A stretch of 64,000 bases of DNA from Dehalococcoidia bacterium (GTDB lineage: Bacteria > Chloroflexota > Dehalococcoidia > Bin125): positions 1,692,855 through 1,756,854 of the forward strand of contig OZ252031.1 of assembly GCA_965247775.1 (NCBI GenBank), in the 5' to 3' direction. The notes below the pieces were generated by a model, which was not told the origin of the DNA, ran no database searches, and saw only the letters and a program-made list of their open reading frames with translations. Below, piece after piece: positions 20,587 to 62,409 of this stretch (the stretch's first letter is position 1; the number at the start of each line of letters is the position of its first letter). Position numbers and translations under genes: made by a program.

Positions 20587-20616
20587 CGGGCGGGGGTCAC
20601 GGGGCTGGCCGGGGCA

Positions 20617-21663
20617 TCAGACGGGCACGGGGCCGGCGCGGGCGATGCGGTTGAGGGATTCGTCGATGTCCTGGTCGGTCACGCCGGCGTGGGTGACGAG
20701 CCGCGCGGTGGTGGCGGAGAGGATGGTGGCGAGGACGCCGCGCTGGGCGAGGCGCCGGCGGAAGGCGGGCGCGTCCGGGACGGGGACGACGATGATGTTG
20801 GTCTGGACGGACTGGGGCTGGAGGGGGTAGCCGAGTTCGGCCAGGCCGGCGGCGAGGCGGCGGGCGTTGCGGTGGTCGTCGGCGAGGCGGTCGACCATGG
20901 TGTCGAGGGCGACGAGGCCGGCAGCGGCGAGGATGCCCGCCTGGCGCAGGCCGCCGCCGAGCATTTTGCGCACCTTGCGGGCGCGAGCGATGAAGACGGC
21001 GCTGCCGCAGAGGAGGGATCCAACGGGGCAGGCGAGGCCTTTGGAGAGGCAGAAGCCGACGGAGTCGAAGGGGGCCGCGAGGCGGGCGGCGGGGACGCCG
21101 CTGGCGACCTGGGCGTTGAAGATGCGGGCGCCGTCGCAATGGGTGCGGAGACCGAGTTCGCGGGCGATCGCGGTGAGGGTGTCCGTCTCGTCGAGCGAGA
21201 GGACGGCGCCACCACAGAAGTTGTGCGTGTTCTCGAGGGCCAGGAGGGTGGTGGGGGGGTGGTGGATGTTGGCGTTGCGGGCGGCGCTGCGCACCTGGTC
21301 GGGGTCGAGGCCACCGTCGGGGCGGTTGGGGAGGTTGGTGAGGAGGAGGCCGCCGAGGCGCGCGGCGCCGCCGACCTCGGCGCGGAGGATGTGGGCCTGG
21401 TCGCCGAGGAGGACTTCGTCGCCGGGGGTGCAGTGGGTGAGGAGGGCGACGAGATTGGCCATGGTGCCGCTGGCGACGAAGAGGGCGGCCTCCTTGCCGA
21501 GGCGGGTGGCGGCGGCGGCTTCGAGGGCGTTGAGGGTGGGGTCTTCGCCGTAGACGTCGTCGCCGACCTCGGCGGCGGCCATCGCTTGGCGCATGGCGGG
21601 GGTGGGGCGGGTGACCGTGTCACTTCTGAGGTCGATGGGCCGGTCGATGGGAGGGCTGGCCAT
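20617..21663 (-). CDS. ltaE: low-specificity L-threonine aldolase (PLP-dependent)
   Basis: [23 protein letters not shown], and the PLP lysine region. Confidence 0.85.
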
Positions 21664-21683
21664 GGGGGATCTCCAGGAGGGGG

Positions 21684-22121
21684 TCAGGAGGGGTCGCGCT
21701 CCCAGATGGTCTGGAAGCCTTCGCCGCCGCGGACGGCAGCCGAGAGGGTGGCGCGCTCCTCCTGGACGGCCTCGGCGAAGGCTTGGGCGATCTGGGGTTC
21801 AAGAGCGGAGTCGGTGGCCAGGAGTCGGTCGCGGATGCTGGCGAGGATGCCGGCGTCGTCCATGGCGGTGACGCTGCGTGGCCAGAGGAAAGACATGATG
21901 CGGTCGGGGAGGGGGAAGTTGGGGCGGAGGGCTTTGAGGCTGCGGAAGCGCTCCTCGACGGAGGAGGCGGGAGCGACGGCCTTGATCAGGGGGCCGTCGG
22001 ATTGGGCGGAGCGGAAGTCGATGAGGAGGCGCTTCTGGACGACCTGGAAACGGACGACAAGAACCTCGGCGCGTTCGATCACACGGGTGATCTCGGCCAG
22101 ATCCACCCCGTAATCGTCCAC
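21684..22121 (-). CDS. hypothetical protein
   Basis: GTG start preceded by caggaagggc (RBS). The N-terminal part of the longer track ORF lacks an RBS. Confidence 0.45.
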
Positions 22122-27126: not shown

Positions 27127-29922
27127 CTACCAGTACTGGCGGCGTTTGCCGCGGCGACGCTTGCCGCCGCCGTGGCCCCACTCCTGGGGGTCGGCGGCGC
27201 GGTCGAGGGCGACGGCGCAGACCTTGTATTCGGGGATGCGGGATTGCGGGTCGTAGGCGTTGTTGGTGAGCCAGTTGGCGGCGGAGTCCTTGAGGCGGAG
27301 GAAGGGCACGAAGACGGAGCCGGGGGCGACGTCCTCGGTGAGGAAGGCGACGCCCTCGAGGCGACCGCGGCGTGAGCGGAGGAGGACGGTTTCGCCGTCG
27401 GCGATCTCGGCGCGGGCGGCGTCGGCGGGGTGGACGGCGACGCGGAGTTCCGGGAAGGAGTCGGCGAGGCCCTGGACGCGACTGGTGAGGGCGCCGCCGT
27501 GCCAGTGGTAGAGGACACGGCCGGTGTTGAGGATGAGGGGATAGGCGTCGTCGGGCTGCTCCTCGGCGGGGGCGGTCTGACGCACGGGGACGAACTTGGC
27601 CTTGCCGCGAGGGAAGTCCCGGGCGTACATGCGCTCGGTGCCGGGATGCGCAGGGTCGGGGCAGGGCCACTGGATGCCGCCTTCGCGGTCGAGGCGATCA
27701 TGGGAGAGGCCGGCCATGATGGGGGTGAGCGCGGCGAGTTCGTCGAAGATCGCGGCGGCGGAGGGGTGGTCGAAGCCGCGCAGTTCGACGTTGCGCCGCC
27801 GCGCGACGCGGGCGGCGAGGTCCTGCACGATCTCCCAGTCGGGCCGGGCCTCGCCGGGAGGGTCGAGGAGCTTGCGGAGGCGCTGGACGCGGCGCTCGCT
27901 GTTGGTGACGGTGCCCTCCTTCTCAGCGAAGGAGGCGGCGGGGAGGACGACGTCGGCGATGTCGGCAGTCTCCTGCATGAAGATGTCCTGCACCACGAGG
28001 AAGTCGAGCGTGGCGAGCATCTCGGTGGCGTGCGCGAGGTTGGGGTCGGTGAGCGCGGGGTTCTCGCCGACGACGTACATGCAGCGGATGCTGCCGTCGC
28101 CCATGGCCTCGACCATGTCGGTGGCGCGCAGCCCCTCCTTGTCTGACAAGCGGAGGGCGGCCACGTCGCCGCCCCAGACGGACTGGAAGCGGGCGAGGTT
28201 GTCGGGGGTGTAGCGCTGGTAGCCGGGGAGGGCGTCGGGAACGCAGCCGGCGTCGCCGGCGCCCTGGACGTTGTTCTGGCCGCGCAGGGGGGAGACGCCG
28301 TTGCCGGCGCGGCCGACCTGGCCGGTGAGCAGGGCGAGGTTGAGGAGGGCAGTGGCGTTGGCGGTGCCGTTGGTGTGCTGGGTGACGCCCATGCCCCAGA
28401 GGAGGCAGGAGCCATCGCGGCCGGGGGGGCCGCCGTGCCCGGCGGGGCGGGCGTAGAGGCGGGCGGCGCGGCAGAGGAGATCGGCCGGGACGCCGGAGAG
28501 TTCCTGCACATGTTCGGGGGTGTAGTGGTCGAGGGCGGCGCGCCAGGCGTCGAAGTCCTCGGTGCGGTCGCGGATGAATGCTTCGTCGTGGAGGTTCTCG
28601 TCGAGGATGAGCTTGGCCATGCCGTTGAGGACGGCGACGTCGGTGCCGGGGTACTGGCGCAGCCAGAGGTCGGTGTGATCGCAGAGTTCGATGCGCTTGG
28701 GATTGAGGATGATCATGCGGACGCCGTGATCGTTGACGGCGCGGCGGATGCGGCTGGCGATGACGGGGTGGTTGGAGGAGGTGTCGGAGCCGACGACCAT
28801 GACGCAGCCGGCGTCCTCGTAGTCGGTGTAGGAGTTGGAGGTGGCGCCGCTGCCGAGCTGGTTGAGCATGGCATCGACGGAGGGGGCGTGGCAGAGGCTA
28901 GTGCAGTGGTCGATGTTGTTGGTGCCCATGAGGGCGCGGACGAGCTTCTGGATCAGGTAGTTGTCCTCGTTGGTGGCTTTGGCGCTGGCGAAGGCGCCGA
29001 AGTGGCCGCGGTGCTGGACGAACTTGTCGGCGACGAGGTCGAGAGCCTCGTCCCAGGTGGCGGGCTGGAGGGCGCCAGCGCGGCGGATGAGGGGCGTCGT
29101 GAGGCGGTCGGGGTGGTTGACGAACGAGACGCCGAAGCGGCCCTTGACGCAGAGGAGGCCGAGGGAGGAGCGGTTGGCGGGGTCGTCATCGACGTGGGTG
29201 ACGCGGCCGGCGTCGTCGGCGGAGAGCTGGATGCCGCAGCCGACGCCGCAGTAGGGGCAGACCGTGGAGACGGTGCGGGCGGGGGCGGGGGGCTGCTTGG
29301 AGCGGATGGCGCCGGTGGGACAGGCGGCGACGCACTGGCCGCACGAGGTGCAGATGGACTCCCCGAGGGGTTCGTCGGCGAAGGGGGCGATGCGGGTGGC
29401 GGCGGCGGCGCCGGCGATGCCGATCGCGCCGATGTGCTGGAGGTCCTGGCAGGCGGAGGTGCAGCGACCGCAGAGGATGCACTCGGTGGCGTCGAAGAGG
29501 TAGAAGGGGTTGCTCTCGTCGCGGTGATCGTTGCGGCGGGGGGTCCAGCGGCGGGGGTCGGCGACGTGGGAGACGGCAGCGCGGCCGAGTTCGGAGCCGG
29601 GCTGGGGATCGGATTCGGGGTCGCGCATGGCGAGGGTGAGTTCGAGGACACCGCGGCGGACATCGCGCGCTTGCTCGGATTGGGTGTGCACGACCATGCC
29701 ATCATTCGCGGGAAGGGAGCAGGAGGCGGGGAGGCCGCGGACACCGTCGATCTCGACGAGGCAGGTGCGGCAGGCGCCGAGGGCGGGGCCGTCCGGGTCC
29801 TTGCAGAGGTGGGGGAAGCCGCCGTCGCGGGCGAGGACAGCGTCGAGGACGGTGGCGCCGGGGGGGACCTGAATGGGTTCGCCATCGACGGTGAGGGAGA
29901 GGGGAGCGCTCGTGGGAGTCAT
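27127..29922 (-). CDS. fdsA: NAD-dependent formate dehydrogenase catalytic (alpha) subunit, molybdopterin/Fe-S, Cys-type
   Basis: N-terminal 2Fe-2S and 4Fe-4S Cys clusters. Active-site region NNIDHCTSLCHAPSV has Cys, not Sec. 931 aa. ATGA overlap with the upstream gene. Confidence 0.9.
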   Translation of the reverse strand: MTPTSAPLSLTVDGEPIQVPPGATVLDAVLARDGGFPHLCKDPDGPALGACRTCLVEIDGVRGLPASCSLPANDGMVVHTQSEQARDVRRGVLELTLAMRDPESDPQPGSELGRAAVSHVADPRRWTPRRNDHRDESNPFYLFDATECILCGRCTSACQDLQHIGAIGIAGAAAATRIAPFADEPLGESICTSCGQCVAACPTGAIRSKQPPAPARTVSTVCPYCGVGCGIQLSADDAGRVTHVDDDPANRSSLGLLCVKGRFGVSFVNHPDRLTTPLIRRAGALQPATWDEALDLVADKFVQHRGHFGAFASAKATNEDNYLIQKLVRALMGTNNIDHCTSLCHAPSVDAMLNQLGSGATSNSYTDYEDAGCVMVVGSDTSSNHPVIASRIRRAVNDHGVRMIILNPKRIELCDHTDLWLRQYPGTDVAVLNGMAKLILDENLHDEAFIRDRTEDFDAWRAALDHYTPEHVQELSGVPADLLCRAARLYARPAGHGGPPGRDGSCLLWGMGVTQHTNGTANATALLNLALLTGQVGRAGNGVSPLRGQNNVQGAGDAGCVPDALPGYQRYTPDNLARFQSVWGGDVAALRLSDKEGLRATDMVEAMGDGSIRCMYVVGENPALTDPNLAHATEMLATLDFLVVQDIFMQETADIADVVLPAASFAEKEGTVTNSERRVQRLRKLLDPPGEARPDWEIVQDLAARVARRRNVELRGFDHPSAAAIFDELAALTPIMAGLSHDRLDREGGIQWPCPDPAHPGTERMYARDFPRGKAKFVPVRQTAPAEEQPDDAYPLILNTGRVLYHWHGGALTSRVQGLADSFPELRVAVHPADAARAEIADGETVLLRSRRGRLEGVAFLTEDVAPGSVFVPFLRLKDSAANWLTNNAYDPQSRIPEYKVCAVALDRAADPQEWGHGGGKRRRGKRRQYW

Positions 29923-31925
29923 GCGGGGACCTCCGGCGTGAGGGCGGAGTCGAAGTGGGCGAGGGCGCTGGTGACGGGCGCGACGGCCATTTGGCCCAAG
30001 CCGCAGAGCGAGGCGGAGCGGAGGAGGGGGATGAGGGCGTCGATGTCGGCGCGGGCGGCCTCACGATCGGCCTGGCCGGCGCTGCGGAGGCGGCGGACGG
30101 CGGCGGCGAGACGCTCGCCGCCCTCGCGGCAGGGGGTGCACTTGCCGCAGGACTCGCGGGCGTTGTAGTCGGCCTCGATCTGGAGGATCTCGCCGACGGG
30201 GGTCGCGGCGTCGAAGGCGACGATGCCGCCGGAGCCGAGAACGGCGCCGGCCTCGTCGAGGGCGCCGGGGCCGATGGGGAGGTCGAGCTTCGTGGCGGGG
30301 AGGAGCCCGCCGGAGGGGCCGCCGGCGACGACGCCGCCGAGGGCGGCCGGATCGGCAACGCCGCCGATGTGGAGGATGGCGGCGACGGTGGCGCCCATCG
30401 GGACCTCGATCAAACCGGGGCGGGGGACCGCGCCGCTGAGGCTGATCAACTTGGTGCCGGGGGCATCGTCGGTGCCGGCGTCGCGGAACCAGTCGACGCC
30501 GAAGCGGAAGAGGTCGGGCAGGTTGCAGAGGGTTTCGACGTTGCTGATCACGGTGGGGCGGCCCCAGAGGCCGCGCTCGGTGGGGAAGGGAGGGCGCAGG
30601 CGAGGGACGGCGCGGCGGCCCTCGATGCTTTCGAGGAGGACGGTTTCCTCGCCGCAGACGTAGCCGCCGGCGCCGCGACGGATCTCGACGCGGAGGCCCG
30701 CGGTGTCACTTCCCTTATGTGCGCGGGCGTTCTGCGCGCCGGGGGCGCCGGCGCGCAGAACGCCCGCTTCCTCCGCCTGGGCGAGGGCGGTGGTGAGGCG
30801 CTGATGGGAGAGCGCCGCTTGCCCGTTGACGTAGATGAAGGCGAGGTCCGCGCCGACGGCGTGGGCGGCGATGCAGACGCCCTCGATCAGGCGATGGGGG
30901 TCGGCCTCCATGAGGGCGCGGTCCTTGAAGACGCCGGGCTCCCCCTCCTCGGCGTTGACGACGAGGCTCGGGGTGCCGTTGCGGGTGGCAGCGGCGCTGG
31001 CGGCGCGCCACTTGAGGTGGACGGGGAAGTAGGCGCCGCCACGGCCGCGCAGGCCGGAGGCTTCTACCGCGTCGACGATCTCCTCGGGGGTGATGGAGAG
31101 CGCTGTCTTGAGGCCGACGTAGGCGCCGGCGGCGCGGGCCTCGTCGAGGGAGGCGGGGTCGATGTGGCCGGCCCGGGCGAGGAGGCGGCGGGTCTGGGGC
31201 GCGAGAAAGTCGTGCAGGGCGGGGTCCTCGGGGGCGCCGGCGAGGAGGGCGCGCGCGACGCCGGCGGCGGCGGCGGCCGTGACGGGGACGGCGGCGGGAC
31301 GGGTGGGGCCGTCCGGGGGGAGGGCGAGGACGGGGGCGGCCCAGGCAGCGCCATCGCCGCCGGTCTCGACGACGTCGATCTCGGGCAAGGCGTCGCGCAG
31401 GGCGTCGAGGACGTGGCCCGCGCCGACGGCGCGGGCCATGGCACCGCCGCGGAGGTTGAGCCGGGGGCGGGGGCCGGGGGGCGACGGCACGAGGGCGGGG
31501 GCCGGGTCGGCGGCGAAGCCCGCGGCGGCGCGGCCCCGCTCTGGTGTATCGGCTCTGCCGAAGAGCGGGCCGTCGTCCTCGACGACGGGAGCGACGGCGC
31601 AGGCGAAGCAACACTCGCGTTCCTCCACGCGGCGGCCGGCGTCGCGGAGGGAGGCGGCCAGGGCGTCGCTGCCAGCCAAGCGGCAGCTCAGACCGCGGCA
31701 GACAGCGATCGCGCCGGGCTCGGGGGGGAGGGTGCGGAACTCGGTGTAGGAGGTCGCGACGGCGTAGAGGTCGGAGTTGGGGATGTGGAGCCAGTGCCCG
31801 ATCTGCTCCAGGCCGGCGGGGTCAAGGTAGCCCGCGATCTCGTGGAGCAGGTGGAGGGCGGGGAGCGCTTGGGCGCGCTCCCGGGGGAGAGAAACCAGCC
31901 GATCGTCGAGGCCGTCGACCGTCAT
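29919..31925 (-). CDS. formate dehydrogenase beta/gamma fusion (NuoE-like 2Fe-2S plus NuoF-like FMN/NAD-binding 4Fe-4S subunit)
   Basis: NuoF motifs GRGGAYFP ... GGYVCGEETVLLESIEG ... ESCGKCTPCR. Start ATG 31925 or TTG 31982. Confidence 0.75.
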   Translation of the reverse strand: MTVDGLDDRLVSLPRERAQALPALHLLHEIAGYLDPAGLEQIGHWLHIPNSDLYAVATSYTEFRTLPPEPGAIAVCRGLSCRLAGSDALAASLRDAGRRVEERECCFACAVAPVVEDDGPLFGRADTPERGRAAAGFAADPAPALVPSPPGPRPRLNLRGGAMARAVGAGHVLDALRDALPEIDVVETGGDGAAWAAPVLALPPDGPTRPAAVPVTAAAAAGVARALLAGAPEDPALHDFLAPQTRRLLARAGHIDPASLDEARAAGAYVGLKTALSITPEEIVDAVEASGLRGRGGAYFPVHLKWRAASAAATRNGTPSLVVNAEEGEPGVFKDRALMEADPHRLIEGVCIAAHAVGADLAFIYVNGQAALSHQRLTTALAQAEEAGVLRAGAPGAQNARAHKGSDTAGLRVEIRRGAGGYVCGEETVLLESIEGRRAVPRLRPPFPTERGLWGRPTVISNVETLCNLPDLFRFGVDWFRDAGTDDAPGTKLISLSGAVPRPGLIEVPMGATVAAILHIGGVADPAALGGVVAGGPSGGLLPATKLDLPIGPGALDEAGAVLGSGGIVAFDAATPVGEILQIEADYNARESCGKCTPCREGGERLAAAVRRLRSAGQADREAARADIDALIPLLRSASLCGLGQMAVAPVTSALAHFDSALTPEVPA

Positions 31926-32003: not shown

Positions 32004-32789
32004 CTACCAGGGGATCGGCAGGAAGCGCTTCCAGCCGCGGGGTTTGATCTCCTTGATGCGCCAGGGCGCCTTCTGGGTGGAGAAGGTGGGAGCGATGTCG
32101 GCGCCGTCGGCGGCGACGAGTTCGGCCAGGGCCTTATCGATGCGGTCGGCGTCGGCCCAGGTGGCCTTGTAGTGGACGCGGCCGTCCTTGCCGACGACGT
32201 AGACCATGTTGGGGAGGTCGCCGAGCTGGTGGTGGACCTCCTGATCGATACCGTCAACGAGGACGCCGACGGACATGGACTTCTGCCGCACCAGTTCCTG
32301 GGCGTACTGCATTTTCTGCTCGTACGTCTTGTGCTCGTGGTAGGCGGTGAAGATCGTTTCGTCGGGGTGGGGTTCCCGCACGTAGAGGTTGAGGACGGCG
32401 ACGTCGTGGCCGGCGTACTTGTCCTTGAGCTGCTCGAAGAGCGGCACCTGCCGCCGGTAGGGCGGTCACGTCATGGCGCCGGTCATCAGCACGAAATGCT
32501 TCTGGCCCTTGAAGGTGGCGGTGTTGACGCGCTCGCCGGTCGTGGTTTCGAGGTCGATGGCGGGGAATTCCTCGCCGGGAGGGAAGGTGGTCTTGGATTT
32601 CTGGTAGAGCTTCTGGATGTAGCCCTCGCCGCCGAGGCCGAGGTGGCCGAGCATGATCTTGAAGACGCGGACGCGGTCGATGTAGTACATGCTCCAGAAG
32701 CCCATCCAGGGCCCGGGGGGCTTGTCGATGGCTTCGTTGTGGTCCTGTAGGTAGGAGCGCGCGGCCGGCTCCCCTTCGGTGGTGGTCAT
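32004..32789 (-). CDS. selenoprotein candidate: iodothyronine-deiodinase-like thioredoxin-fold protein, in-frame TGA (Sec108)
   Basis: Track ORFs 32466..32789 and 32004..32447 are in the same frame and separated only by TGA at 32466-32468. Context KHFVLMTGAMT-U-PPYRRQVPLFEQL ... LYVREPHPDE aligns with the deiodinase FGSATUPPF ... YIDEAHPSDGW. ATG 32789 follows agggggac. Stem-loop right after the TGA. Confidence 0.7.
32440..32455 (-). promoter_or_regulatory. candidate bacterial SECIS hairpin (ggcggc-AGGU-gccgcu) about 13 nt downstream of UGA
   Basis: 6-bp stem including one G-U pair; loop carries GGU. Confidence 0.45.
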
Positions 32790-33165: not shown

Positions 33166-34647
33166 TCAATCGTCGTGGGGGGCGAGGCGCCCCGCGGCGA
33201 GGTTGAGGCGCTCCAGCACGAGCGCGCAGTCCAGGGCGGCGAGGGTGTCGAAGAGGGGCGGGGCGACGCGCTTGCCGGTGACGGCGACGCGAACCGGGGT
33301 GAAAAGCGCGCCGGGTTTCAGTTCCAGGCGTTCGGCCAAGCCGCGCAGAGCAGTCTCGATGGCATCGACGGACCAGGGCTCAAGGCCAGCGAGGGCGGCG
33401 CGCACGGCTTCAACGGCGGCGAGGGCGCCGGAGGGGTTGTCGCGGAAGCCCTTGCCCATGAGATCGGCGTTGGTGTAGTCGAGGGGGCCCGCCTGGTAGA
33501 CGAAGTCCGTGTACTCGGCCACCTCGCTGAGGAGCTTGACGCGCTCCTGGATGGCGGGGGCGAGAGGGAGGAGGGGGGCGGTATCGAGGGGACGGGGGAT
33601 GTCCGCGGGGAAGGCGGCGTCGAGGAAGGGGAGGGCGCGGTCGAGGAAGTCTTGGGGGGCGAGGTCGCGGATGTACTCGGCGTTCATGGCTTCGAGGCGC
33701 TGCCCGTCGAAGGTGGCGGGGGTTGTGCCCATGCGGTCGATGTCGAAGGCCTCGACGATCTCGGCCCGGGACATCTTGGTGGTGCGGTCGTCCTTGGACC
33801 AGCCGAGCAGGGCGAGGAAGTTGATCAGCGCCTCGGGCAGGTAGCCCTGCTCGGCATAGTCGAGCAGGGCGGTGGCGCCGTGGCGCTTGCTGAGCTTGCC
33901 CTTGTCGGGGCCGAGGATGACGGGCTGGTGGACGAAGATGGGCGGCTCCAGGCCGAGGGCCTCGTAGAGGAGGAGGTGGCGGGGGGCGCTGGGCAGCCAC
34001 TCCTCGCCGCGGATGACGTGGCTGATCTGCATGGCGGCGTCGTCGACGACGGAGGCGAGGTGGTAGGTGGGGAAGCCGTCGGCCTTGAGGAGGACGTGGT
34101 CGTCAAGGAGACGGTTTTCGAAGCGGACTTTGCCGTGGATGGCGTCGGCGACGACGGTGGCGCCCTCGCCGGGCACCTTGAAGCGAACGACGCAACGGCC
34201 CTCTTGCTCGGCGATGGCGGCGTCGATGGCGGGGGCGTCCAGGTTGCGGCAATGGGCGTCGTAGCCGGGCGGTTGCTTGCGCTCTTGCTGCGCCTTGCGG
34301 ATCCGGGCCAGGCGTTCCGAGGAGCAGGCGCAGCGGTAGGCCTGGCCGGAGGCGAGCAGCTTCTCGATGGCCGCGCGGTAGAAGGGCAGGCGCTCGGATT
34401 GGCGGTAGGGGGCGTGGGGGCCACCGACGCTGGGGCCCTCGTCCCAATCGAGGCCGAGCCAGCGCAGGGCCTGCAGGATGCGCTCTTCCGCGCCCTCCAC
34501 GGCACGCTTTTGATCGGTGTCCTCGATCCGCACAATGAAGGCGCCGCCGTGATGCCGGGCCAAGAGCCAGTCGAAGAGCGCGGTGCGGATGTTGCCGACG
34601 TGCGGGTCGCCGGTGGGGCTGGGGCCGTAGCGGACGCGGACGGTCAT
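33166..34647 (-). CDS. gltX: glutamyl-tRNA synthetase
   Basis: HIGH-type motif PSPTGDPHVGN; KMSKS-type KLSKR. 493 aa. Confidence 0.9.
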   Translation of the reverse strand: MTVRVRYGPSPTGDPHVGNIRTALFDWLLARHHGGAFIVRIEDTDQKRAVEGAEERILQALRWLGLDWDEGPSVGGPHAPYRQSERLPFYRAAIEKLLASGQAYRCACSSERLARIRKAQQERKQPPGYDAHCRNLDAPAIDAAIAEQEGRCVVRFKVPGEGATVVADAIHGKVRFENRLLDDHVLLKADGFPTYHLASVVDDAAMQISHVIRGEEWLPSAPRHLLLYEALGLEPPIFVHQPVILGPDKGKLSKRHGATALLDYAEQGYLPEALINFLALLGWSKDDRTTKMSRAEIVEAFDIDRMGTTPATFDGQRLEAMNAEYIRDLAPQDFLDRALPFLDAAFPADIPRPLDTAPLLPLAPAIQERVKLLSEVAEYTDFVYQAGPLDYTNADLMGKGFRDNPSGALAAVEAVRAALAGLEPWSVDAIETALRGLAERLELKPGALFTPVRVAVTGKRVAPPLFDTLAALDCALVLERLNLAAGRLAPHDD

Positions 34648-34737
34648 GGGCGGCAGGCTCCGGGAACGGCGTACGCGCGTGGCACCGCGTCAGCGGGCGC
34701 GCTTGGCACTGCGTCAGCGGACGCGCTGGGCGCCGCG

Positions 34738-39296: not shown

Positions 39297-42282
<2,986 letters not shown>

Positions 42283-42354
42283 TGCTTTGCGGTTTCCGCA
42301 GTGTGGGGTTGATGATGGTCAGGCTGGTCGCTCGTGTAGGCTGTTCGGTGCCGG

Positions 42355-42429
<75 letters not shown>

Positions 42430-42517: not shown

Positions 42518-43150
42518 TCAGATCTCGCGGGCGAGGTCGGCGTCCAGGCCGGCGAAGACGAGGGTATCGCCGGCCTGGATGATTTGCGAGCGGACGGGGT
42601 TGAGCTGGACTTGGTTGTCGCGGACGACCATGAGGAGGCGGCGGGTGCGGCCCTCGCTGTCGAGGGCGTCGAGGGGCTGGCCGTGGAGGCGGTCGGGGGG
42701 GGCGTAGACGCCGATGCCGTAGTCGCGGGTGAGGGTGAGGTAGTCCTGGGCGGTGCGGACTTGGAGGAGGTGGGCGACGCGCTCGCCGCCGTCGCGCTCG
42801 GGCTGGACGACGCGGTGGGCGCCGATGCGTTGCAGGATGGTGGCGTGGCCTTCGCTGCTGGCTTTGGCGATGACCGTGGGGACGCCGAGGGAGAGCAGGT
42901 TCATGGTGGCGAGGACGCTGGCTTCGAGTTGGCCGGTGGCGACGACGCCGACGTCCATGCCGGCGAGGCCGAGGTCGCGGAGGCCGTCGGCGTCGGTGAT
43001 GTCGACGATGGCGGCGCGGGAGACGTGGTCGGCCAGGGCCTGGACCTCCCCCTCGCCGCGGTCGCAGGCGAGGACGTCGTGGCCTTGGTCGGTGAGGGTG
43101 CGGGCGAGCTGGGCGCCGAAGCGGCCCAATCCGAGGACGGCGACCTGCAT
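42518..43150 (-). CDS. ktrA: K+ uptake system NAD-binding regulatory subunit (TrkA/KtrA)
   Basis: Rossmann VAVLGLGRFG plus TrkA_C domain. Confidence 0.85.
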   Translation of the reverse strand: MQVAVLGLGRFGAQLARTLTDQGHDVLACDRGEGEVQALADHVSRAAIVDITDADGLRDLGLAGMDVGVVATGQLEASVLATMNLLSLGVPTVIAKASSEGHATILQRIGAHRVVQPERDGGERVAHLLQVRTAQDYLTLTRDYGIGVYAPPDRLHGQPLDALDSEGRTRRLLMVVRDNQVQLNPVRSQIIQAGDTLVFAGLDADLAREI

Positions 43151-43174
43151 GGGTGGCTCCTTTCGGCGGTGGCG

Positions 43175-44581
43175 TCAGCCGATGCGTACGCCTTCAGCGG
43201 GGTAGCGGTAGCGGGCCTGGGGGCGTTCGGGCACGGTGAGGGCGACCATCAGGGCGCCGAGGCGGCCGATGAACATGAGGGCGACGAGGACGAGGGCGCC
43301 GGCGGTGGTGAGATCGCGGGTGAGGCCCTGGGACCAGCCGACGTTGGCGAGGGCGGAGGTGGCTTCGAAGACGAGCGGGAGGAAGGGGGCGTCGTCGGTG
43401 ATTTCGAGGGCCCAGACGCCGGCGGCGAGGAGGACGGTGGCGAGGACGACGACGGTGATGGCGCGCAGGACGATGGCGGTGGGGAGTTCGCGGCCGAAGA
43501 TTTCGGCGCGGTGGCGGCCGCGGAGACTGGACCAGACGACGGCCAGGCTGACCATGAAGGCGCCCATCTTGATGCCGCCGGCGACGGAGGTGGAGGCGCC
43601 GCCGATGAACATGAGCGCGAGGAGGATGGCGGTGGTGAGGTCCTGGAGGGCGGCCATGTCGATCGTGGCCATGCCGGTGGTGCGGTTGACGGAGAGGAAG
43701 AAGCTGTTGGCGAGGGCGTCGCCGGCGCCCTGCCCGTCCAGGGGGCGGCCGCTCTGCACTTCGCCGATGAGGAAGACGAGCATGCCGAGGAGGAGGAGGC
43801 CGCCCATCCCGAGGAGGACGATGCGGGTGTCCAGGGACCAGCGCCGTGGGCGGCGGGGGAGGTCGAAGACGGTGACGAAGGAGAGGCTGCCGAGGAAAGC
43901 CGCGAGTCCCATGATCAGGAGGGGGTAGGGGCTGGCGATCTGGCCGCTGAAGCTCTGGAAGCCGCCCATGAGATCGAAGCCGGCGTTGTTGGCGGCGGAG
44001 ACGGCGTGGAAGAGGGCGCGCCAGACAGCGGCGCCGCCGGAGGCGGTGTCGAAGGCCCACGGGAGGAGGAGGAGGAAGGCGAGGATCTCGAGGGTGCCGA
44101 TGAAGATCATGACGCGGCGCAGGAGGCGGCCGATGTTCCAGTCGCCGGCGCCGGCGAGTTCCATGCCGAAGAGGGCGTTGCCGCGCAGGCCGAGGCGGCG
44201 GCCGATGACGAGGAGGAGGGCGCCGGTGTACATGGTGACGCCGAGGCCGCCGAGCTGGATGAGGGCGAGGATGACGGCTTCGCCGAAGCCGCTCCAGTAG
44301 GTGGCGGTGTCGAGGCGGACGAGGCCGGTGACGCAGACGGCGGAGGTGGCCGTGAAGAGGGCGTCCCAGCCGTTGGTCCACTCCCGGGATTGGGAGGCGA
44401 GGGGGAGGGAGAGGAGGAGGGCGCCGAGGGCGATCGTGGCGGCGAAGGCGCCGACGAGGTACCAGGGGGAGGGGCGGAAGCGGAAGAGCCGGCGGCGGGG
44501 ACGGAGAGCGACGACTTCCGGTCGCAGGCGACGACGGCGCAGAACGACGTTGCCGGGGCGGCGCGGGTGGCGGATGGTCAC
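43175..44581 (-). CDS. ktrB: TrkH/KtrB-family K+ transporter
   Basis: Polytopic, with the TrkH selectivity-loop glycine motifs. Confidence 0.85.
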   Translation of the reverse strand: MTIRHPRRPGNVVLRRRRLRPEVVALRPRRRLFRFRPSPWYLVGAFAATIALGALLLSLPLASQSREWTNGWDALFTATSAVCVTGLVRLDTATYWSGFGEAVILALIQLGGLGVTMYTGALLLVIGRRLGLRGNALFGMELAGAGDWNIGRLLRRVMIFIGTLEILAFLLLLPWAFDTASGGAAVWRALFHAVSAANNAGFDLMGGFQSFSGQIASPYPLLIMGLAAFLGSLSFVTVFDLPRRPRRWSLDTRIVLLGMGGLLLLGMLVFLIGEVQSGRPLDGQGAGDALANSFFLSVNRTTGMATIDMAALQDLTTAILLALMFIGGASTSVAGGIKMGAFMVSLAVVWSSLRGRHRAEIFGRELPTAIVLRAITVVVLATVLLAAGVWALEITDDAPFLPLVFEATSALANVGWSQGLTRDLTTAGALVLVALMFIGRLGALMVALTVPERPQARYRYPAEGVRIG

Positions 44582-44757
44582 GCCGCTTGCCGCCGGAATC
44601 GCGTGGGCCTTGGGTGAGGGTTGGGGCGAGGGCTTGGCTGCCGCATGTCTCCCCGTCCGCTCCGCGCCGACCCCGGCTGATCGTACGATGAAGGGCGGGT
44701 GGGGGATAGCGGAGGGGAGTAGCCGGGGTGGGGCGGGGCTGCGACAATCGCTTGCGG

Positions 44758-44830
44758 GGCCCCATCGTCTAGAGGCCTAGGACGCCAGCCTTTCAAGCTG
44801 GTAGCACGGGTTCGAATCCCGTTGGGGCCA
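44758..44830 (+). tRNA. tRNA-Glu (anticodon TTC), no encoded CCA
   Basis: ggccccatcgtctagaggcctaggac ... cTTTCaa ... ggttcgaatcccgttggggcca. Confidence 0.85.
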
Positions 44831-49854: not shown

Positions 49855-50725
49855 CGAGCTGGGCTGTGTGAACCTGCTGAGCGCCGAGGGGATCGCGGCG
49901 GCGGCGAAGCTGGTGAAGAAAGGGGCGATGTTCCGGCTGGACACGCCGATCAACTACGCGGACCCGCCGCTGTTCGAGCGCACGCCGGCGGTGCACACGG
50001 TCGTGCGCTTCGAGCAGTTTTTCGCCCAGGACGACACCCTGGACAACTACAACACGCAGGAGGGGGCGCAGTGGGACGGCCTGGGGCACGTGGGCTTCCC
50101 GCCGGTGGAGGCGTTCTACAACGGGGTCAAGCGGGATGAGATCCGGTCGGGGCCGGAGGGCAAGCTGGGGATCCATCAGTGGAAGGACCGCATTGCCGGG
50201 CGGGGGGTGCTGCTGGACGTGTTCAAGTATCGGCAGGATCAGGGCAACCCCGTGAACCCGGGCAGCACGGACCAGTACTCGGCGGACGACCTGGAGGGCG
50301 CGCGCGCGGCGCAAGGGGTGGCGTTGCGGGGCGGCGACATCCTGCTGGTGCGCACCGGCTGGGTGGGCTACTACATGGCGCTGCCACAGGAGCAGAAGGA
50401 TACGATGGGGACCATGGAAGGTCTGACGTCGTGCGGGATCAGCAACGAGCGCGCCGTCGCCGAGTGGTTGTGGGACAACCACGTGGCGATGGTGGGCACG
50501 GACTGCCCCGCGGTGGAGACGTGGCCCTGGCAGGACTTCGAGACCGAGGCGCTGCACTTCCGCACGCTGGCGCTGCTGGGGATGCCGATCGGGGAGCAGT
50601 TCGTGCTCGACGACCTAGCGGCGGACTGTCAGGCGGACGGGGTCTACGAGTGCATGGTGACGTCGGCGCCGCTACACGTGATCGGCGGGGTGGCGTCGCC
50701 GCCGAACGCGCTGGCGATCAAGTAG
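49757..50725 (+). CDS. cyclase-family protein (kynurenine formamidase-like)
   Basis: ATG follows gggagga. Cyclase-family conserved His/Asp blocks. Confidence 0.75.
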   Translation: MAVDFDTLPKFADLPVKAGAPADSTWGLWGDDDELGCVNLLSAEGIAAAAKLVKKGAMFRLDTPINYADPPLFERTPAVHTVVRFEQFFAQDDTLDNYNTQEGAQWDGLGHVGFPPVEAFYNGVKRDEIRSGPEGKLGIHQWKDRIAGRGVLLDVFKYRQDQGNPVNPGSTDQYSADDLEGARAAQGVALRGGDILLVRTGWVGYYMALPQEQKDTMGTMEGLTSCGISNERAVAEWLWDNHVAMVGTDCPAVETWPWQDFETEALHFRTLALLGMPIGEQFVLDDLAADCQADGVYECMVTSAPLHVIGGVASPPNALAIK

Positions 50726-50795
50726 CGGGGTCGCAGCGAGACGCCCGCAGCGAGCGGGCCGGCAGCGACGCTCAGCAGCAGGAGAGGACGAGCAC

Positions 50796-51281
50796 ATGCC
50801 CATCGCCGAGGGCGCACAGATTCCGGCCGAAGCCAGCGGCATCACCTGGCAGGACGGCACACCCAGTCCGAAGAAGCTGGCCGACCTGGTGGCGGGCAAG
50901 AAGGCCATCGTCTTCGGCATCCCGGGGGCGTTCACGCCGACCTGCTCGAACGATCACCTGCCCAGCTTCGCGCAGAGCGAGGCGGCGCTGCGCGAGAAGG
51001 GCGTTGAGGAGGTGATCTGCCTGGCGATGAACGACATCTTCGTGCTGAGCGCTTGGAACGCGGCGAATGGCGCGCCCCACATCACGATGCTCGCGGACGG
51101 CAACGGCGAGGTGACGCAAGCGCTGGACCTGGCGCTGGACCTGCACGCGGTGGGGCTGGGGACGCGCACGGCGCGATTCGCGATGGTCGTGGAGGATGGC
51201 GTGGTGCGGGCGCTGAACGTGGAGGAGAAGGCGGGCACCTGCGACGTGTCGTCGGCGGGGAGCATCCTGGCGCGCGCCTGA
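50796..51281 (+). CDS. Prx5-type peroxiredoxin
   Basis: FGIPGAFTPTCS peroxidatic-Cys motif. ATG follows ggagagga. Confidence 0.85.
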   Translation: MPIAEGAQIPAEASGITWQDGTPSPKKLADLVAGKKAIVFGIPGAFTPTCSNDHLPSFAQSEAALREKGVEEVICLAMNDIFVLSAWNAANGAPHITMLADGNGEVTQALDLALDLHAVGLGTRTARFAMVVEDGVVRALNVEEKAGTCDVSSAGSILARA

Positions 51282-57300: not shown

Positions 57301-57564
57301 GAGCAAGACGTACTTCATGAGGTTCCCCGGCTGACTCGGGTCGGGGGCGTTTGCCCGACGACGGGCGGGCGAGGGCGAGATCGACAGGGCGGCTGGGCTC
57401 CTTGCGCGGGGAGCGTTATGCCCGGGCCGGCATATTGGCGGGGCGGGCGGAGACGGGGATACTCTGGGCGCTGGGGCGCCTGAGGCGGGGTGCACCCGCC
57501 CGGGTACGCCGCCGCGAACGCACGCCAGTCGCCGGCGCAGGGCCGGCGGGAAGGACAACCGCCC

Positions 57565-59433
57565 ATGCCGGAGGAACTCGCGTACAACGGCAAGATCCTG
57601 AACGTGCATCTCAGTAGCGGCGAGATCACGCCGGAGGACGTGCCGGAGCAGATGTACAAGGACTACCTGGGCGGCTACGGACTGGGCGCCCGCTGGCTGT
57701 TCGATCGGATTCCACAGGGGGCGGACCCAATGGGCCCGGACAATGTCCTGGGGCTGATCCCGGGGGTGATGACGGGGACGCCGATCTTCGGCAACCGCTT
57801 CCAGGCGGTGTGCAAAAGCCCGACGACGGGGGGCTGGGGGGACGCGAACTGCGGCGGGGACTTTGGGCCCTACCTGAAGTTCGCCGGCTGGGACGGGATC
57901 CTGCTGTACGGCGAGGCGGCGAAGCCGGTCTACATCTTGATCGACGACGACAAGGTGAGCATTGAGGACGCGTCGGCGTATTGGGGGATGGACGCGATCG
58001 GGGCGGAGAAGACGTTCAAGGAGGAGTACGGCAAGAAGACGTCGGTGGCGGTGATCGGGCAGTCGGGGGAGAAGCTGTCGTACCTGGCGGGGATCTGCAA
58101 CGAGCACGGGCGGCTAGCGGCGCGGTCGGGCGTGGGGGCGGTGATGGGGTCGAAGCAGGTGAAAGCGGTGGTGGTGAAGTCGACGCGGCGGATGATCCAG
58201 CAGCACGACAAAGAGGCGCGGGCGCTGATGAAGGAGTCGCTGGACGACTTCGGGGTGCCGTTGCGGGACTTCTTCCGCACCTTCGGGACGACGGGGATCA
58301 CGGCGGGGTCAGCGCTGAGCGGGGACTCGCCGGTGCGCAACTGGGGCGGCGTGGGGGTAGAGGTGTTCTCGGACGTGGACGGGCTCAAAGGCCCGGTGGT
58401 GAATGAGAAGATGGAGAAGCACTACGCCTGCTGGCACTGCCCGCTGGCGTGCGGAGCGGAGAGCGTGGAGTCGACGAACCCGAAGTACCCGTACCCGCGG
58501 CACACGCACCGGCCGGAATACGAGACGATGGCGTCGTTCGGGACGATGAACCTGATCAATGACCTGGACTTCCTCACCCACGCCAACCACGTCTGCAACG
58601 AGTACGGGCTGGACACCATCGGGGCGGGGGCGACGATCTCGTTCGCGATCGAATGTTTCGAGAACGGGATCATCACAAAGGAGGACACAGACGGGCTGGA
58701 ACTCCGCTGGGGCGGAGCGGACGCGGCGATGGATCTGCTGCACAAGATCGGCAGGCGGGAGGGCTTCGGGGACGTTCTGGCGGACGGGGTGAAGGTGGCG
58801 GCGGAGAAGATCGGCAATGGGTCGGAGGCGTACGCGATCCACATCGGCGGGCAGGAGCTGCCGATGCACGACCCCAAGCTGCAGCCGGAATACCACACGA
58901 CGTACAAGCTGGACCCGACGCCGGCGCGGCACACGCAGTACGAGGGCAACAGCCGCTTCGGCGGGCCCACGTACCCGCGGGCGCCGAAGGACTTCAAGGA
59001 CTACGCAAGCCGCGGCGAGCACCACAAGGGTGCGAGCGAGTACATGCACGTGGTGAACGCGACGGGGATGTGCCAGTTCATCATGATGGCGGCGCCAACG
59101 GACCGGTTCCCCCAGTGGATCAACCAGGTGACAGGCTGGGGGATGACGGGGGAGGAGTTGCAGCAGGCGGGGGAGCGGATCGCCAACCTGCGCATGGCTT
59201 TCGAGGTGCGGGAGGGCAACAACCCGCGCGCCCGCTACGTCCCGGGGCGGATCTGGGGCGGGGAGAGCACGGCGCAGGAGGTGGGCCCGCTGGAGGGCGT
59301 GACGCTGGACGTGGAGAAGCTGGAGACGGACTTCCTCACGGCCTGCGGCTGGGACACGGAAACGTGCACGCCGAGCCGGGGGAAGCTGGAGTCGCTGGGG
59401 CTGGCGGACGTGGCGGAAGCGATCGGTGTCTAA
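57565..59433 (+). CDS. aldehyde:ferredoxin oxidoreductase (tungstopterin AOR family)
   Basis: AOR N-terminal and catalytic domains with the 4Fe-4S Cys ligands. ATG follows gggaagga. Locally lower GC. Confidence 0.8.
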   Translation: MPEELAYNGKILNVHLSSGEITPEDVPEQMYKDYLGGYGLGARWLFDRIPQGADPMGPDNVLGLIPGVMTGTPIFGNRFQAVCKSPTTGGWGDANCGGDFGPYLKFAGWDGILLYGEAAKPVYILIDDDKVSIEDASAYWGMDAIGAEKTFKEEYGKKTSVAVIGQSGEKLSYLAGICNEHGRLAARSGVGAVMGSKQVKAVVVKSTRRMIQQHDKEARALMKESLDDFGVPLRDFFRTFGTTGITAGSALSGDSPVRNWGGVGVEVFSDVDGLKGPVVNEKMEKHYACWHCPLACGAESVESTNPKYPYPRHTHRPEYETMASFGTMNLINDLDFLTHANHVCNEYGLDTIGAGATISFAIECFENGIITKEDTDGLELRWGGADAAMDLLHKIGRREGFGDVLADGVKVAAEKIGNGSEAYAIHIGGQELPMHDPKLQPEYHTTYKLDPTPARHTQYEGNSRFGGPTYPRAPKDFKDYASRGEHHKGASEYMHVVNATGMCQFIMMAAPTDRFPQWINQVTGWGMTGEELQQAGERIANLRMAFEVREGNNPRARYVPGRIWGGESTAQEVGPLEGVTLDVEKLETDFLTACGWDTETCTPSRGKLESLGLADVAEAIGV

Positions 59434-60564: not shown

Positions 60565-61452
60565 ATGCGAATGAGCGAACACCCTGCGCTGGAGTTCGAG
60601 GAGCAGCCCCGCCTGCGCCGGCCGCGACTGGTGCTGGCCTGGGCGGGCTGGAACGACGCGGGGGAGGCGGCATCGACGGCGGTGCGCTACCTGGCGGCCT
60701 CGCGGGAGGCGAAGCCCTTCGCGCGGATCGACCCGGAGGAGTTCTACGACTTCACGGAGGCGCGGCCGCTGGCGCGCTACAGCGAGGGCCGGCGCGAGAT
60801 CATGTGGCCGAGCACGGATTTCTACGCGCTGCCGGTGGCGTCGGCGGACGCGGACCTGATCCTGGGGCTGGGGATTGAGCCGAACTACCGCTGGAAGAGC
60901 TACATGGCGGCGGTACGCGCGGTCGTGACGGCGATGGACGTGGAGATGGTGATCACGCTGGGGGCCGTGGTCGCGGGGGTGGCGCACACGCGGCCGGTGG
61001 GGGTGCGGGGGTCGGCGAACGCGGCGACGCTGGCGGAGCGGTACGGCATGCAGCCTTCTCGCTACGAGGGCCCCACGGGGATCGTGGGGGTGTTGCACAA
61101 CGACTGCCGGCGGCACGAAGTCGACGGGATCAGTCTCTGGGCGTCGGTGCCGCATTACCTGCCGGGCCTGACGAATCCCAAGGCGGCCCGGGCGCTGCTG
61201 GAGCGGTTGGGGACGATCTGCGCGCTGCCGGTGGACTACGAGCGCCTGGAGCGGGAGGAGGCGCGCTTCACGCGGCGGGTGGAGGCGGCGCTGGCCGAGA
61301 ACGAGGAGCTGGAGGCGTATGTGCGCCAGTTGGAGGCGCGCGGGGAGGAGGCGACGGATGGGGAGCCGCCGCCGGCCGAGCTGCCCTCGGCGGAGGGGTT
61401 GATCGAAGACTTGGAGGACTACCTGCGGGAGAGTCGTCGGGAGGGGCCCTAG
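60565..61452 (+). CDS. PAC2-family protein (proteasome assembly chaperone-like)
   Basis: N-terminal LVLAWAGWNDAGEAASTAV ... IDPEEFYDF signature of the PAC2 family. Confidence 0.6.
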   Translation: MRMSEHPALEFEEQPRLRRPRLVLAWAGWNDAGEAASTAVRYLAASREAKPFARIDPEEFYDFTEARPLARYSEGRREIMWPSTDFYALPVASADADLILGLGIEPNYRWKSYMAAVRAVVTAMDVEMVITLGAVVAGVAHTRPVGVRGSANAATLAERYGMQPSRYEGPTGIVGVLHNDCRRHEVDGISLWASVPHYLPGLTNPKAARALLERLGTICALPVDYERLEREEARFTRRVEAALAENEELEAYVRQLEARGEEATDGEPPPAELPSAEGLIEDLEDYLRESRREGP

Positions 61453-61500
61453 CAGCGGGAACCGACGAGCGGGCCGGCTGGGCGCGGGAAGGAACAGACG

Positions 61501-61995
61501 ATGGCGGACGAAGCGACAGCGGGACAGCCGGCCGTGGACGAGGTGACGGACGCGGACCGCATGGAGGCGTCGGAGAAGAACGTCGAAAAGATGTGGAAGT
61601 TCGCGCGGAAGTTCGCGGACAAGAGCGGCTCCTACCTGCATCCGCAAGAGGAGATCACGGAGTTTCTGGTGATCGGGCTGGCGAAGCACGTCGACGATCT
61701 GGGCAAGCCGCTCTGCCCCTGCAATTTCTATGAGGACAAAGAGAAAGAGGTGGCGACATCCAACTTCTGGATCTGCCCCTGCGAGGAGATGCAGAAGTGG
61801 AAGTACTGCCATTGACTGCTCTTCTGCGATGCGGAAGGTCTTCCCATCACCGAACACCTGCCGGCCGAACATGAAGGCCGCGAGATCTACGGCGTGATCC
61901 CGGACCCGCAGCCGGAGAAGGGCCGAGCGATCGGCCGGCTGGAGAAGAAGCAGGGGCGACGCATTGAGAAGGGGCGGCGGGCGCCCAAGGACTGA
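61501..61995 (+). CDS. selenoprotein candidate: ferredoxin:thioredoxin reductase catalytic-subunit-like protein with in-frame TGA (Sec105) in the CHC motif (CPC-x16-CPC-x8-CHU)
   Basis: The track ORF 61501..61815 ends at TGA. The frame continues to the TGA at 61993-61995 with FtrC-like sequence (U-LLFCDAEGLPIT versus CHC-MLFLTPDNDFAG). ATG follows gggaagga. A stem-loop lies after the TGA. Confidence 0.7.
61819..61839 (+). promoter_or_regulatory. candidate bacterial SECIS hairpin (cttctgc-GAT-gcggaag) 6-8 nt downstream of UGA
   Basis: 7-bp stem with one G-U pair. Shares the 3' arm GCGGAAG with the NHL gene hairpin. Confidence 0.4.
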
Positions 61996-62103: not shown

Positions 62104-62409
62104 ATGGCGAAGAAGAGCCAACTGGCGCGGGAGAAGAAGCGCCGGGCGCTGCATGAGCGCCATCAGGCGGAGCGCGCCGATTTGAACGCGAAGGTGCGTC
62201 AGTCGGCGGACGATCCGCAGGCGCGCTGGGCGGCGCAGATCGCGCTGCAGCGGCTGCCGCGGAACAGCAGCCCGAGCCGGCTGAAGAATCGCTGTGAGGT
62301 GACGGGGCGGTCGCGGGGCTACATGCGCAAGTTCGGGCTATCGCGGATCACGTTCCGGGAGATGGCGTCGCGGGGGCTGCTGCCGGGGATTCGCAAGTCC
62401 TCCTGGTAG
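62104..62409 (+). CDS. rpsN: 30S ribosomal protein S14 (long, non-zinc form)
   Basis: [13 protein letters not shown] ... [28 protein letters not shown] ... GIRKSSW. Confidence 0.85.

Follow-up and report, generated by a model that had tools for sequence, protein, structure and literature searches.

In a 64-kb stretch of contig OZ252031.1 from a Dehalococcoidia bacterium (assembly GCA_965247775.1; the whole stretch is hereafter called the window), an unusual gene is located on the plus strand at positions 61501-61995. Our analysis leads us to conclude that, very probably, this gene encodes a [4Fe-4S] disulfide reductase of the ferredoxin:thioredoxin reductase (FTR) type and that its in-frame UGA codon at 61813-61815 is read as selenocysteine (Sec). 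The conclusion is based on the conservation of the reading frame downstream of the UGA, on a hairpin resembling a bacterial selenocysteine insertion sequence (SECIS) which follows the UGA within the coding sequence, and on the similarity of the product to FTR catalytic subunits.

Conservation of the reading frame across the UGA codon

Translation from the ATG at 61501 gives ...PLC72-P-C74-NFYEDK...W-I-C92-P-C94-EEMQKWKY-C103-H104, which is followed by the TGA at 61813-61815. Downstream of it the frame contains exactly 59 sense codons, beginning LLFCDAEGLPITEHLP / LLFCDAEGLPITEHLPAEHEGREIYG, up to a second TGA at 61993-61995, in agreement with the initial annotation of this DNA. The motif given in that annotation, C-P-C-x16-C-P-C-x8-C-H, was correct in its constellation but not in its first spacer, which is x17 here; x16 is found in orthologues having STW where others have SNFW. 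The codon of C74 is TGC (61720-61722) and does not specify Sec, so UGA is present solely at C-H-U.

One genome per species was scanned, resulting in 33 loci, to which one syntenic metagenome locus was added; 32 loci bear the motif. At the column of the residue encoded by the UGA (U105), TGA is present in 27 of these 32 loci and TGC or TGT in five. All but one of the TGA loci belong to metagenome-assembled genomes (MAGs) of Dehalococcoidia or other Chloroflexota. The frame after the TGA is open and strongly conserved in each TGA locus whose sequence could be read far enough, with the consensus LLFC[DN]xEGLPITExLPxxHEGREIYG..DPxPxKGRAxxRLExKQGR; the coding sequence of these relatives does not end at C-H. 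In the loci with TGC or TGT, the corresponding frame is likewise intact.

The mode of selection was analyzed using pairwise ratios of nonsynonymous to synonymous substitution rates (dN/dS, Nei-Gojobori method) for 26 TGA forms, covering 16 codons before and 47 codons after the TGA. The in-frame dN/dS was 0.105 upstream and 0.18 downstream of the TGA, whereas the other two frames yielded values of 1.08 and 2.32 (codons +11 to +47). This shows that translation proceeds beyond the TGA without a change of frame and that the codons downstream of it are conserved by purifying selection; a separate ORF in this part, a truncated product and a pseudogene are thereby excluded.

Two types of relatives were detected by protein search. 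Those of the first type, full-length proteins of approximately 150-165 residues with an identity of 55-75%, carry Cys at the column and extend over the part located after the TGA; these Cys homologues are colinear across the TGA point. The second type is represented by eight closer clusters (83-92% identical), each of which ends exactly at ...KYCH. Public gene calls cut the gene at the UGA, with products of 104-115 aa entered as 'hypothetical' or 'FTR catalytic chain' (P0060, P0064, P0067, P0068, P0070, P0071, P0073 and P0076, the last named 'hypothetical protein' by NCBI), and in the ENA call P0019 the UGA column is translated as Trp (CHWLLFC). Several ENA metagenome contigs, between 55 kb and >1 Mb in length, encode the exact 104-aa product of the window, and the loci L038-L040 are among the truncated calls. 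Long contigs with the identical gene are present in ERZ25072076, ERZ25069086 and ERZ25067264. When 1.84 billion cluster representatives (50%-identity clusters) were searched with the 104-residue product, 15 of the approximately 90 representatives with a complete motif were found to end exactly at CH.

A SECIS-type hairpin under selection in the UGA forms

A hairpin starts 10 nt after the UGA. Its core at 61828-61848, GAUG-C-GGAA[GGUC]UUCC-CAUC, consists of 4 bp, a 1-nt bulge at the 5' side, another 4 bp and a GGUC tetraloop, and it can be extended to the pair G61826:C61850. The apical loop at 61837-61840 starts 22 nt after the UGA and corresponds to nt 25-28 if counting begins with the U of UGA. 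For the minimal hairpin element, a folding energy of -8.1 kcal/mol was calculated (z = -2.1). The initial annotation mentioned a 7-bp hairpin after the first TGA; the hairpin exists, but it is interrupted by the bulge and is not a plain 7-bp stem. Moreover, it turned out to be a SECIS-type element matching the architecture of the SECIS of Escherichia coli fdhF.

The two elements have in common the GGUC apical tetraloop, the single-nucleotide 5' bulge and the location in the coding sequence soon after the UGA. They differ in the position of the loop, which in fdhF occupies nt 22-25 by the same count and is thus one codon further away here, in the stem arms (3+3 bp in fdhF, 4+4 bp here) and in the stem sequences. 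The 46-mer of the E. coli fdhF SECIS used for this comparison is 100% identical to the annotated fdhF in 5,419 E. coli genomes.

The core 12-mer GGAAGGTCTTCC (codons Glu-Gly-Leu-Pro) is invariant among the TGA forms, the genomes of which range from 46% to 73% GC. Each of 26 TGA forms (26 of 26) has GAA-GGT-CTT as codons +7 to +9, although these are non-preferred codons, while the other four- and six-fold degenerate codons of the gene vary freely. The number of synonymous substitutions per synonymous site (dS) is approximately 0.7 elsewhere and decreases to 0.22 over codons +5 to +10. Locus L042, which is located on a contig with 46% GC, has TGA and the identical 12-mer, and therefore codon usage does not explain the invariance. 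In five Cys forms the same peptide is encoded by different codons at the hairpin region. In an alignment of 23 distinct sequences, 85.7% of the cells are paired in the structure described above, in comparison to 17-51% in controls with a shifted 3' arm, and three pairs of the lower stem are changed on both sides (G:C/A:U, U:A/C:G and C:G/A:U).

In the closest sisters with Cys, a graded decay of the 12-mer was observed. It is intact (GGAAGGTCTTCC) in L035 (TGT; positions 3001-3447, GCA_936421135.1), while L041 (TGC; 712-1158) shows two changes (GGAAGGCCTCCC), which are synonymous, and L037 (TGC; 174-641) shows four (GGAGGGGCTGCC). This is the expected pattern, since a SECIS becomes useless once Sec has reverted to Cys. 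The hairpin is under selection at the RNA level in the UGA forms only.

Relation to the catalytic subunit of FTR

With U written as C, residues 28-112 match the Pfam family PF02943 (FeThRed_B) with 84.4 bits (cutoff 22; E = 6.5e-24). This is the sole Pfam domain detected, and no rubredoxin domain is fused to it. A PDB sequence search matched solved FTR catalytic chains at E ~1e-24 to 1e-22 with 39-42% identity. The seven-residue FTR constellation (CPC-x16/17-CPC-x8-CHC) is present as C72, C74, C92, C94, C103 and H104, with U105 as the seventh residue, which is aligned with Cys87 of the C85-H86-C87 motif of Synechocystis FTR. Together with the conserved TGA column, these matches exceed by far what chance would produce. 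They support the proposals of the initial annotation that the protein is similar to FTR catalytic subunits and that the UGA replaces the second Cys of C-H-C, i.e. the cluster-side partner and not the CPC nucleophile.

In FTR, it is the Cys of the CPC motif that enters the mixed disulfide with thioredoxin, its partner being the Cys of CHC; these roles were reportedly described by Dai et al. in 2000 and 2007. Based on the alignment, C72, C92, C94 and C103 are the predicted four ligands of the cluster, and H104 the predicted catalytic His. Likewise, C74 is predicted to be the exposed nucleophile making the mixed disulfide with thioredoxin, with U105 as its predicted cluster-side partner.

The AlphaFold2 (AF2) model of the natural homologue P0034, which is 67% identical, has a mean confidence (pLDDT) of 94.7 over its whole length. 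It superimposes on the structures 7C3F, 7BZK and 1DJ7 with a root mean square deviation (rmsd) of ~1.0 Å across 86-89 residues. A C-terminal extension of approximately 45-50 residues has no counterpart in the solved FTR catalytic chains and is ordered in the P0034 model.

Exchange of Cys and Sec during evolution

In neighbour-joining trees, the TGA forms related to the window gene constitute one clade nested among Cys forms. Two divergent TGA lineages are placed elsewhere in the trees, each among Cys forms. They are represented by L043 (1501-1932) and L044 (1070-1501) on one hand and by L045 (1501-1758) on the other, are 47-54% identical and have 52-64% GC. All three loci have TGA after C-H, a conserved in-frame continuation, Val at position +4 from the TGA and own hairpins over the E-G-x-P codons, namely GGAA-GGA-UUCC in L043/L044 and CGGGA-GGGCG-UCCCG in L045. 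The TGA clade together with the two separate TGA lineages suggests that Cys and Sec were exchanged at this column at least three times.

The clade of the window gene has a Cys at position +4 (U-L-L-F-C), which was not mentioned in the initial annotation. It is present in 27 of 27 Sec forms of this clade and in the revertant sisters L035, L041 and L037. Most Cys forms have Val at this position, some have Cys, and canonical FTR has Leu. Since the +4 Cys was kept in L037 and L041 after decay of the hairpin, it is probably a feature at the protein level. The idea that Sec requires a +4 Cys was ruled out for the family as a whole by the Val in the two other TGA lineages and by the Cys in some Cys forms. 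A further idea, namely that the presence of Sec goes along with the choice between CPC and CAC as the second motif, was likewise ruled out by comparison of the loci.

Alternative explanations

If the TGA were a true stop, the gene would be a pseudogene or would encode a truncated protein of 104 residues without the last active-site residue. The public gene calls of 104-115 aa and the 'hypothetical protein' P0076 are in line with this. However, 27 species-level genomes retain the TGA together with an intact and strongly conserved downstream frame, and dN/dS in this frame is 0.18, as opposed to >1 otherwise. Further, conservation begins at the very next codon, where there is neither a start codon nor a ribosome-binding site, the Cys homologues are colinear, and a truncated product would lose half of the redox-active pair. 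Thus, we regard termination at this codon as extremely improbable. Insertion of an ordinary amino acid at the UGA (Cys, Trp or Gly), by codon reassignment or by near-cognate suppression and without Sec, would agree with the Trp in P0019 and with a window in which no Sec machinery was detected. In the window, however, TGA is the ordinary stop codon of many genes, including the class Ic Glu/Gln-tRNA synthetase-family gene 33166-34689 (Pfam-verified), and it also ends the gene under study at 61993, which excludes reassignment of the codon. A hairpin of the fdhF type with GGUC loop, present at SECIS distance and lost when the codon is TGC or TGT, is the signature of SelB-dependent decoding. In addition, relatives have Cys at the column, the window harbours a second TGA-containing gene of a known selenoprotein family (see below), and the class is rich in selenoproteins. 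Insertion of a standard amino acid is therefore very unlikely, if slightly less so than termination.

It could also be argued that the protein is entirely known, as a member of the catalogued NCBIfam family NF041072 derived from Global Ocean Sampling (GOS) data of 2008. The initial annotation did not assign it to any described selenoprotein family, and in this respect it has to be corrected: homologues of the FTR catalytic subunit were reported as a new selenoprotein family on the basis of two GOS reads (Zhang & Gladyshev 2008, PMC2398784) and are covered by NF041072. They appear as the entry 'Ferredoxin-thioredoxin reductase, CxU' in reviews of 2022 and 2026. NF041072, an 'FtrB family double-selenoprotein' (GOS reads JCVI_READ_1093012271142 and 841845), shares with the window protein the Pfam superfamily, the FTR-like fold, the position of Sec at C-x-U and the prediction of Sec from an in-frame TGA and a SECIS. 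However, its members, which are from marine plankton, are approximately 104 aa long, contain two Sec residues (CPU...CIU), have Ile in place of His and are 25% identical to the window protein, which has one Sec, has kept the His and carries a C-terminal extension. The latter scores 32.2 bits with the model, no better than its Cys relatives and far below the cutoff of 160 bits. The 2026 review splits subfamilies by Sec position or motif, and its sole FTR entry is the two-Sec form. A literature search linking FTR, Chloroflexi and selenocysteine, which did not extend to the tables of BSepDB, gave no result. Membership in NF041072 is therefore unlikely, although less remote than the two readings without Sec. 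What appears to be new is the specific form: Sec-containing FTR homologues were already known, while recent reviews have no separate entry for the single-Sec C-H-U form.

Several observations weigh against Sec insertion in an FTR-type enzyme. Neither tRNA-Sec nor selA, selB or selD was detected within the 64-kb window by ARAGORN, Rfam and Pfam analysis of ~30 genes. The fold of the 63 nt beginning with the UGA codon does not surpass that of shuffled controls (z = 0.02), and RNAalifold favours another, weak structure without covariation. As both single-sequence folding and RNAalifold miss the hairpin, the case for it is comparative. Covariation in it is modest, which is to be expected in conserved coding DNA, and the aligned sequences are related to each other. 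The structural model is that of the proxy P0034 and not of the window protein, and in the own subclade of the window no gene for a thioredoxin, a ferredoxin or a variable subunit is adjacent. Finally, the enzymology, from the binding of a cluster and the nature of the electron donor to the Fe-Se intermediate and the function of the extension, is inferred throughout.

Proposed mechanism

Presumably, the protein uses the same mechanism as FTR, with a [4Fe-4S] cluster located beside a redox-active dichalcogenide. During translation, SelB with Sec-tRNA(Sec) would bind to the hairpin of the mRNA, and Sec would be delivered to the UGA. In the mature protein, C72, C92, C94 and C103 would hold the cluster, while the thiol of C74 and the selenol of U105 would form a redox-active selenenylsulfide adjoining it. 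If the established scheme for FTR applies, ferredoxin would supply a first electron, which would cleave the C74-S-Se-U105 bond. The selenolate of U105 would then bind to a cluster iron in a transient Fe-Se bond, and C74 would attack the disulfide of thioredoxin. The second electron would free the selenolate, which would resolve the mixed disulfide. Since Sec is a better nucleophile and a better leaving group than Cys, a faster resolving step and a shifted potential of the active-site couple are to be expected. Plant and cyanobacterial FTR have a variable subunit, the place of which is probably taken here by the C-terminal extension of ~50 residues.

It is tempting to combine these considerations into a broader picture, for and against which we see about equal grounds. 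According to it, the gene represents an uncatalogued, widespread subfamily of stand-alone FTR-like proteins with a single Sec, in which only the cluster-side partner is Sec and which would work via a Cys-Sec selenenylsulfide and a transient Fe-Se bond. The history of this subfamily would include at least three exchanges and fossil SECIS elements, the clade-specific +4 Cys would perhaps serve as a backup or protecting thiol, and the extension may replace the variable subunit.

Features of the locus and gene neighbourhood

The features of the gene and its immediate neighbours are listed in Table 1.

Table 1. Positions of the FTR-like gene, its predicted functional elements and the adjacent genes in the window.
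Feature	Position	Strand	Basis
Complete gene of the probable selenoprotein, 164 codons (U = codon 105) plus terminal TGA	61501-61995	+	sequence, translation, PF02943
Shine-Dalgarno-like GGAAGGA, 7 nt 5' of the ATG	61487-61493	+	inferred by eye
C72-P73-C74 codons; C72 predicted cluster ligand, C74 predicted exposed nucleophile	61714-61722	+	alignment to Synechocystis C55-P-C57; invariant columns
C92-P93-C94 codons; two predicted [4Fe-4S] ligands	61774-61782	+	alignment, invariant columns
C103-H104 codons; predicted cluster ligand and conserved active-site His	61807-61812	+	alignment, invariant columns
UGA, very probably selenocysteine U105, equivalent of Synechocystis FTR Cys87	61813-61815	+	TGA/Cys column, alignment to 1DJ7 and 7BZK, clade structure
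Cys109 codon, +4 from Sec (U-L-L-F-C)	61825-61827	+	comparison of Sec and Cys forms
SECIS-type hairpin within the coding sequence	61826-61850	+	comparative and synonymous-site evidence
Conserved C-terminal extension, residues 113-164 (GLPITEHLPxxHEGREIYG..DPxPxKGRAxxRLExKQGR...)	61837-61992	+	conservation; ordered in the P0034 AF2 model
True stop TGA	61993-61995	+	orthologues stop with TGA, TAG or TAA at differing positions
Upstream neighbour, PAC2-family protein	60565-61452	+	same strand as the FTR-like gene
Downstream neighbour, ribosomal protein S14	62104-62409	+	

In the own subclade of the window, the gene order methyltransferase-like, PAC2, FTR, S14, ABC permease is fixed. A tblastn search with the neighbours from the window revealed that the PAC2-FTR-S14 synteny is limited to the nearest subclade. 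A convergently oriented gene for a WCGPC thioredoxin is located 0.25-1.3 kb downstream in 14 of the 27 Sec-form loci (L006-L008, L010-L012, L014-L016, L020, L021, L023, L027 and L031), and in L016 a TrxB-like flavoprotein gene is additionally present upstream. Since a thioredoxin gene adjoins the Sec-form gene in about half of the loci, thioredoxin is the likely substrate. Within the 64 kb of the window, no thioredoxin of the WCGPC type was found. Upstream of the gene in three Cys-form loci (L017, L019 and L026), a Rex-like redox-sensing regulator is encoded. No gene for a variable subunit (FtrV) is adjacent in the window or in the more than 30 loci, which is why the C-terminal extension may take over this role.

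A gene for an aldehyde:ferredoxin oxidoreductase (AOR; 57490-59433, plus strand) lies 2 kb upstream; for its Pfam assignment (AFOR_N/AFOR_C), the orthologue in L034, which is 88% identical, was used. The AOR gene is syntenic in the nearest relatives, and its presence suggests a ferredoxin-linked metabolism. Another redox-related gene of the window, at 50682-51281 (plus strand), encodes a Cys-type protein of the Redoxin/AhpC family. The window also contains a complete 23S rRNA gene (39297-42284, plus strand), the next gene being that of tRNA-Met (42355-42429, plus strand). There is no 16S rRNA gene in the 39 kb upstream of the 23S rRNA gene, and behind the latter no 5S rRNA was detected with Rfam. 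It appears that the rRNA genes are not linked.

Indications of selenocysteine use by the organism

A second gene with an in-frame TGA is located on the minus strand at 32004-32789. The TGA at 32466-32468 lies in the context ...FVLMTGAMT-U-PPYRRQ... (site T-U-P-P-Y). The product matches the Pfam families T4_deiodinase (41 bits) and Redoxin, as well as the NCBIfam model deiodinase_rel with 76 bits, which is under the cutoff of 250 bits. A hairpin with a 6-bp stem, GGCGGC-AGGU-GCCGCU, is present, and its AGGU loop starts 17 nt after the UGA. For close homologues of this gene, only the fragment of 147-149 aa after the TGA is called in the databases. Deiodinases are a long-known bacterial selenoprotein family according to a review, and Dehalococcoidia MAGs with 46-49 selenoproteins were described as being among the richest known (BSepDB paper, PMC13326102). 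Thus, the evidence for Sec competence of this genome is indirect.

The minus strand at 27127-30060 encodes a 977-residue molybdopterin protein similar to formate dehydrogenase (Fer2_4, 4Fe-4S and Molybdopterin domains) without an in-frame TGA. Apparently, the FdhA-type enzyme of this organism is not a selenoprotein, though the FTR-like and the deiodinase-like genes encode such proteins.

Three further candidates were rejected. At 31549-31640 (plus strand), ARAGORN predicted a 92-nt 'tRNA-Glu (ctc)' with the length of a tRNA-Sec; Rfam finds no tRNA in this GC-rich and probably coding region, and the prediction is probably a false positive. Two TGA junctions in the same frame on the minus strand, at ~20617 (19816-21798) and at ~43175 (42518-44776), were considered as read-through candidates. 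At each of them, two neighbouring genes simply meet, those for threonine aldolase and then a lipoprotein in the first case and for TrkH and then TrkA in the second, in segments with high GC content at the third codon position.

Significance

FTR is a textbook example of disulfide chemistry at an iron-sulfur cluster, which proceeds via a cluster-bound cysteine. The forms with Sec only at the cluster position, their near-identical Cys forms and the revertants offer matched pairs for testing the effect of selenium on the cluster-binding step. The stepwise decay of the hairpin after the change of TGA to TGT or TGC provides a clean example of SECIS loss, and the repeated exchanges mark the column as a hotspot of Sec/Cys replacement. 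There is also a practical aspect: in dozens of genomes of Dehalococcoidia and other Chloroflexota and on many metagenome contigs, the gene is cut at the UGA. The sole curated model for an FTR selenoprotein misses it, so that a dedicated model would fix a systematic annotation error. Last but not least, the SECIS is so similar to the one in fdhF of E. coli that this host may be suitable for heterologous expression without much engineering.

Comparison with known systems

The ferredoxin:disulfide reductase (FDR) of Methanosarcina acetivorans (4TPU) and the glutaredoxin (Grx)-FDR fusion of Desulfotalea psychrophila (7PWE) resemble the window protein in that they are single polypeptides of non-photosynthetic organisms and lack a variable subunit. 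They are much more distant (22-33 bits; TM-score 0.42-0.46), the match to 4TPU being weak (33 bits, TM-score 0.42), contain rubredoxin or glutaredoxin domains which are absent here, and have no Sec.

The FTR catalytic subunit (FtrC/FTRB; PF02943; 1DJ7, 2PVG, 7BZK and 7C3F) is closer, with the same Cys constellation, the His and the core fold (~1.0 Å; 39-42% identity). In comparison to it, the window protein has Sec instead of Cys87, an N-terminal extension and a C-terminal one of ~50 residues, and Cys instead of Leu at +4. Further, there is no gene for a variable subunit nearby, and the host is a non-photosynthetic bacterium of the Chloroflexota.

Closer still are the Cys-type proteins of Dehalococcoidia, other Chloroflexota and Rokubacteria (for example P0001, P0009, L017 and L029), with an identity of 55-75% and a colinear alignment from end to end in which the extension is included. 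They differ in having TGC or TGT at the column and Val at +4 and in lacking the hairpin, and some of them have a Rex gene upstream. These Cys-type FTR-like proteins belong to the same subfamily as the window protein, the single-Sec C-H-U form of which appears to be uncatalogued.

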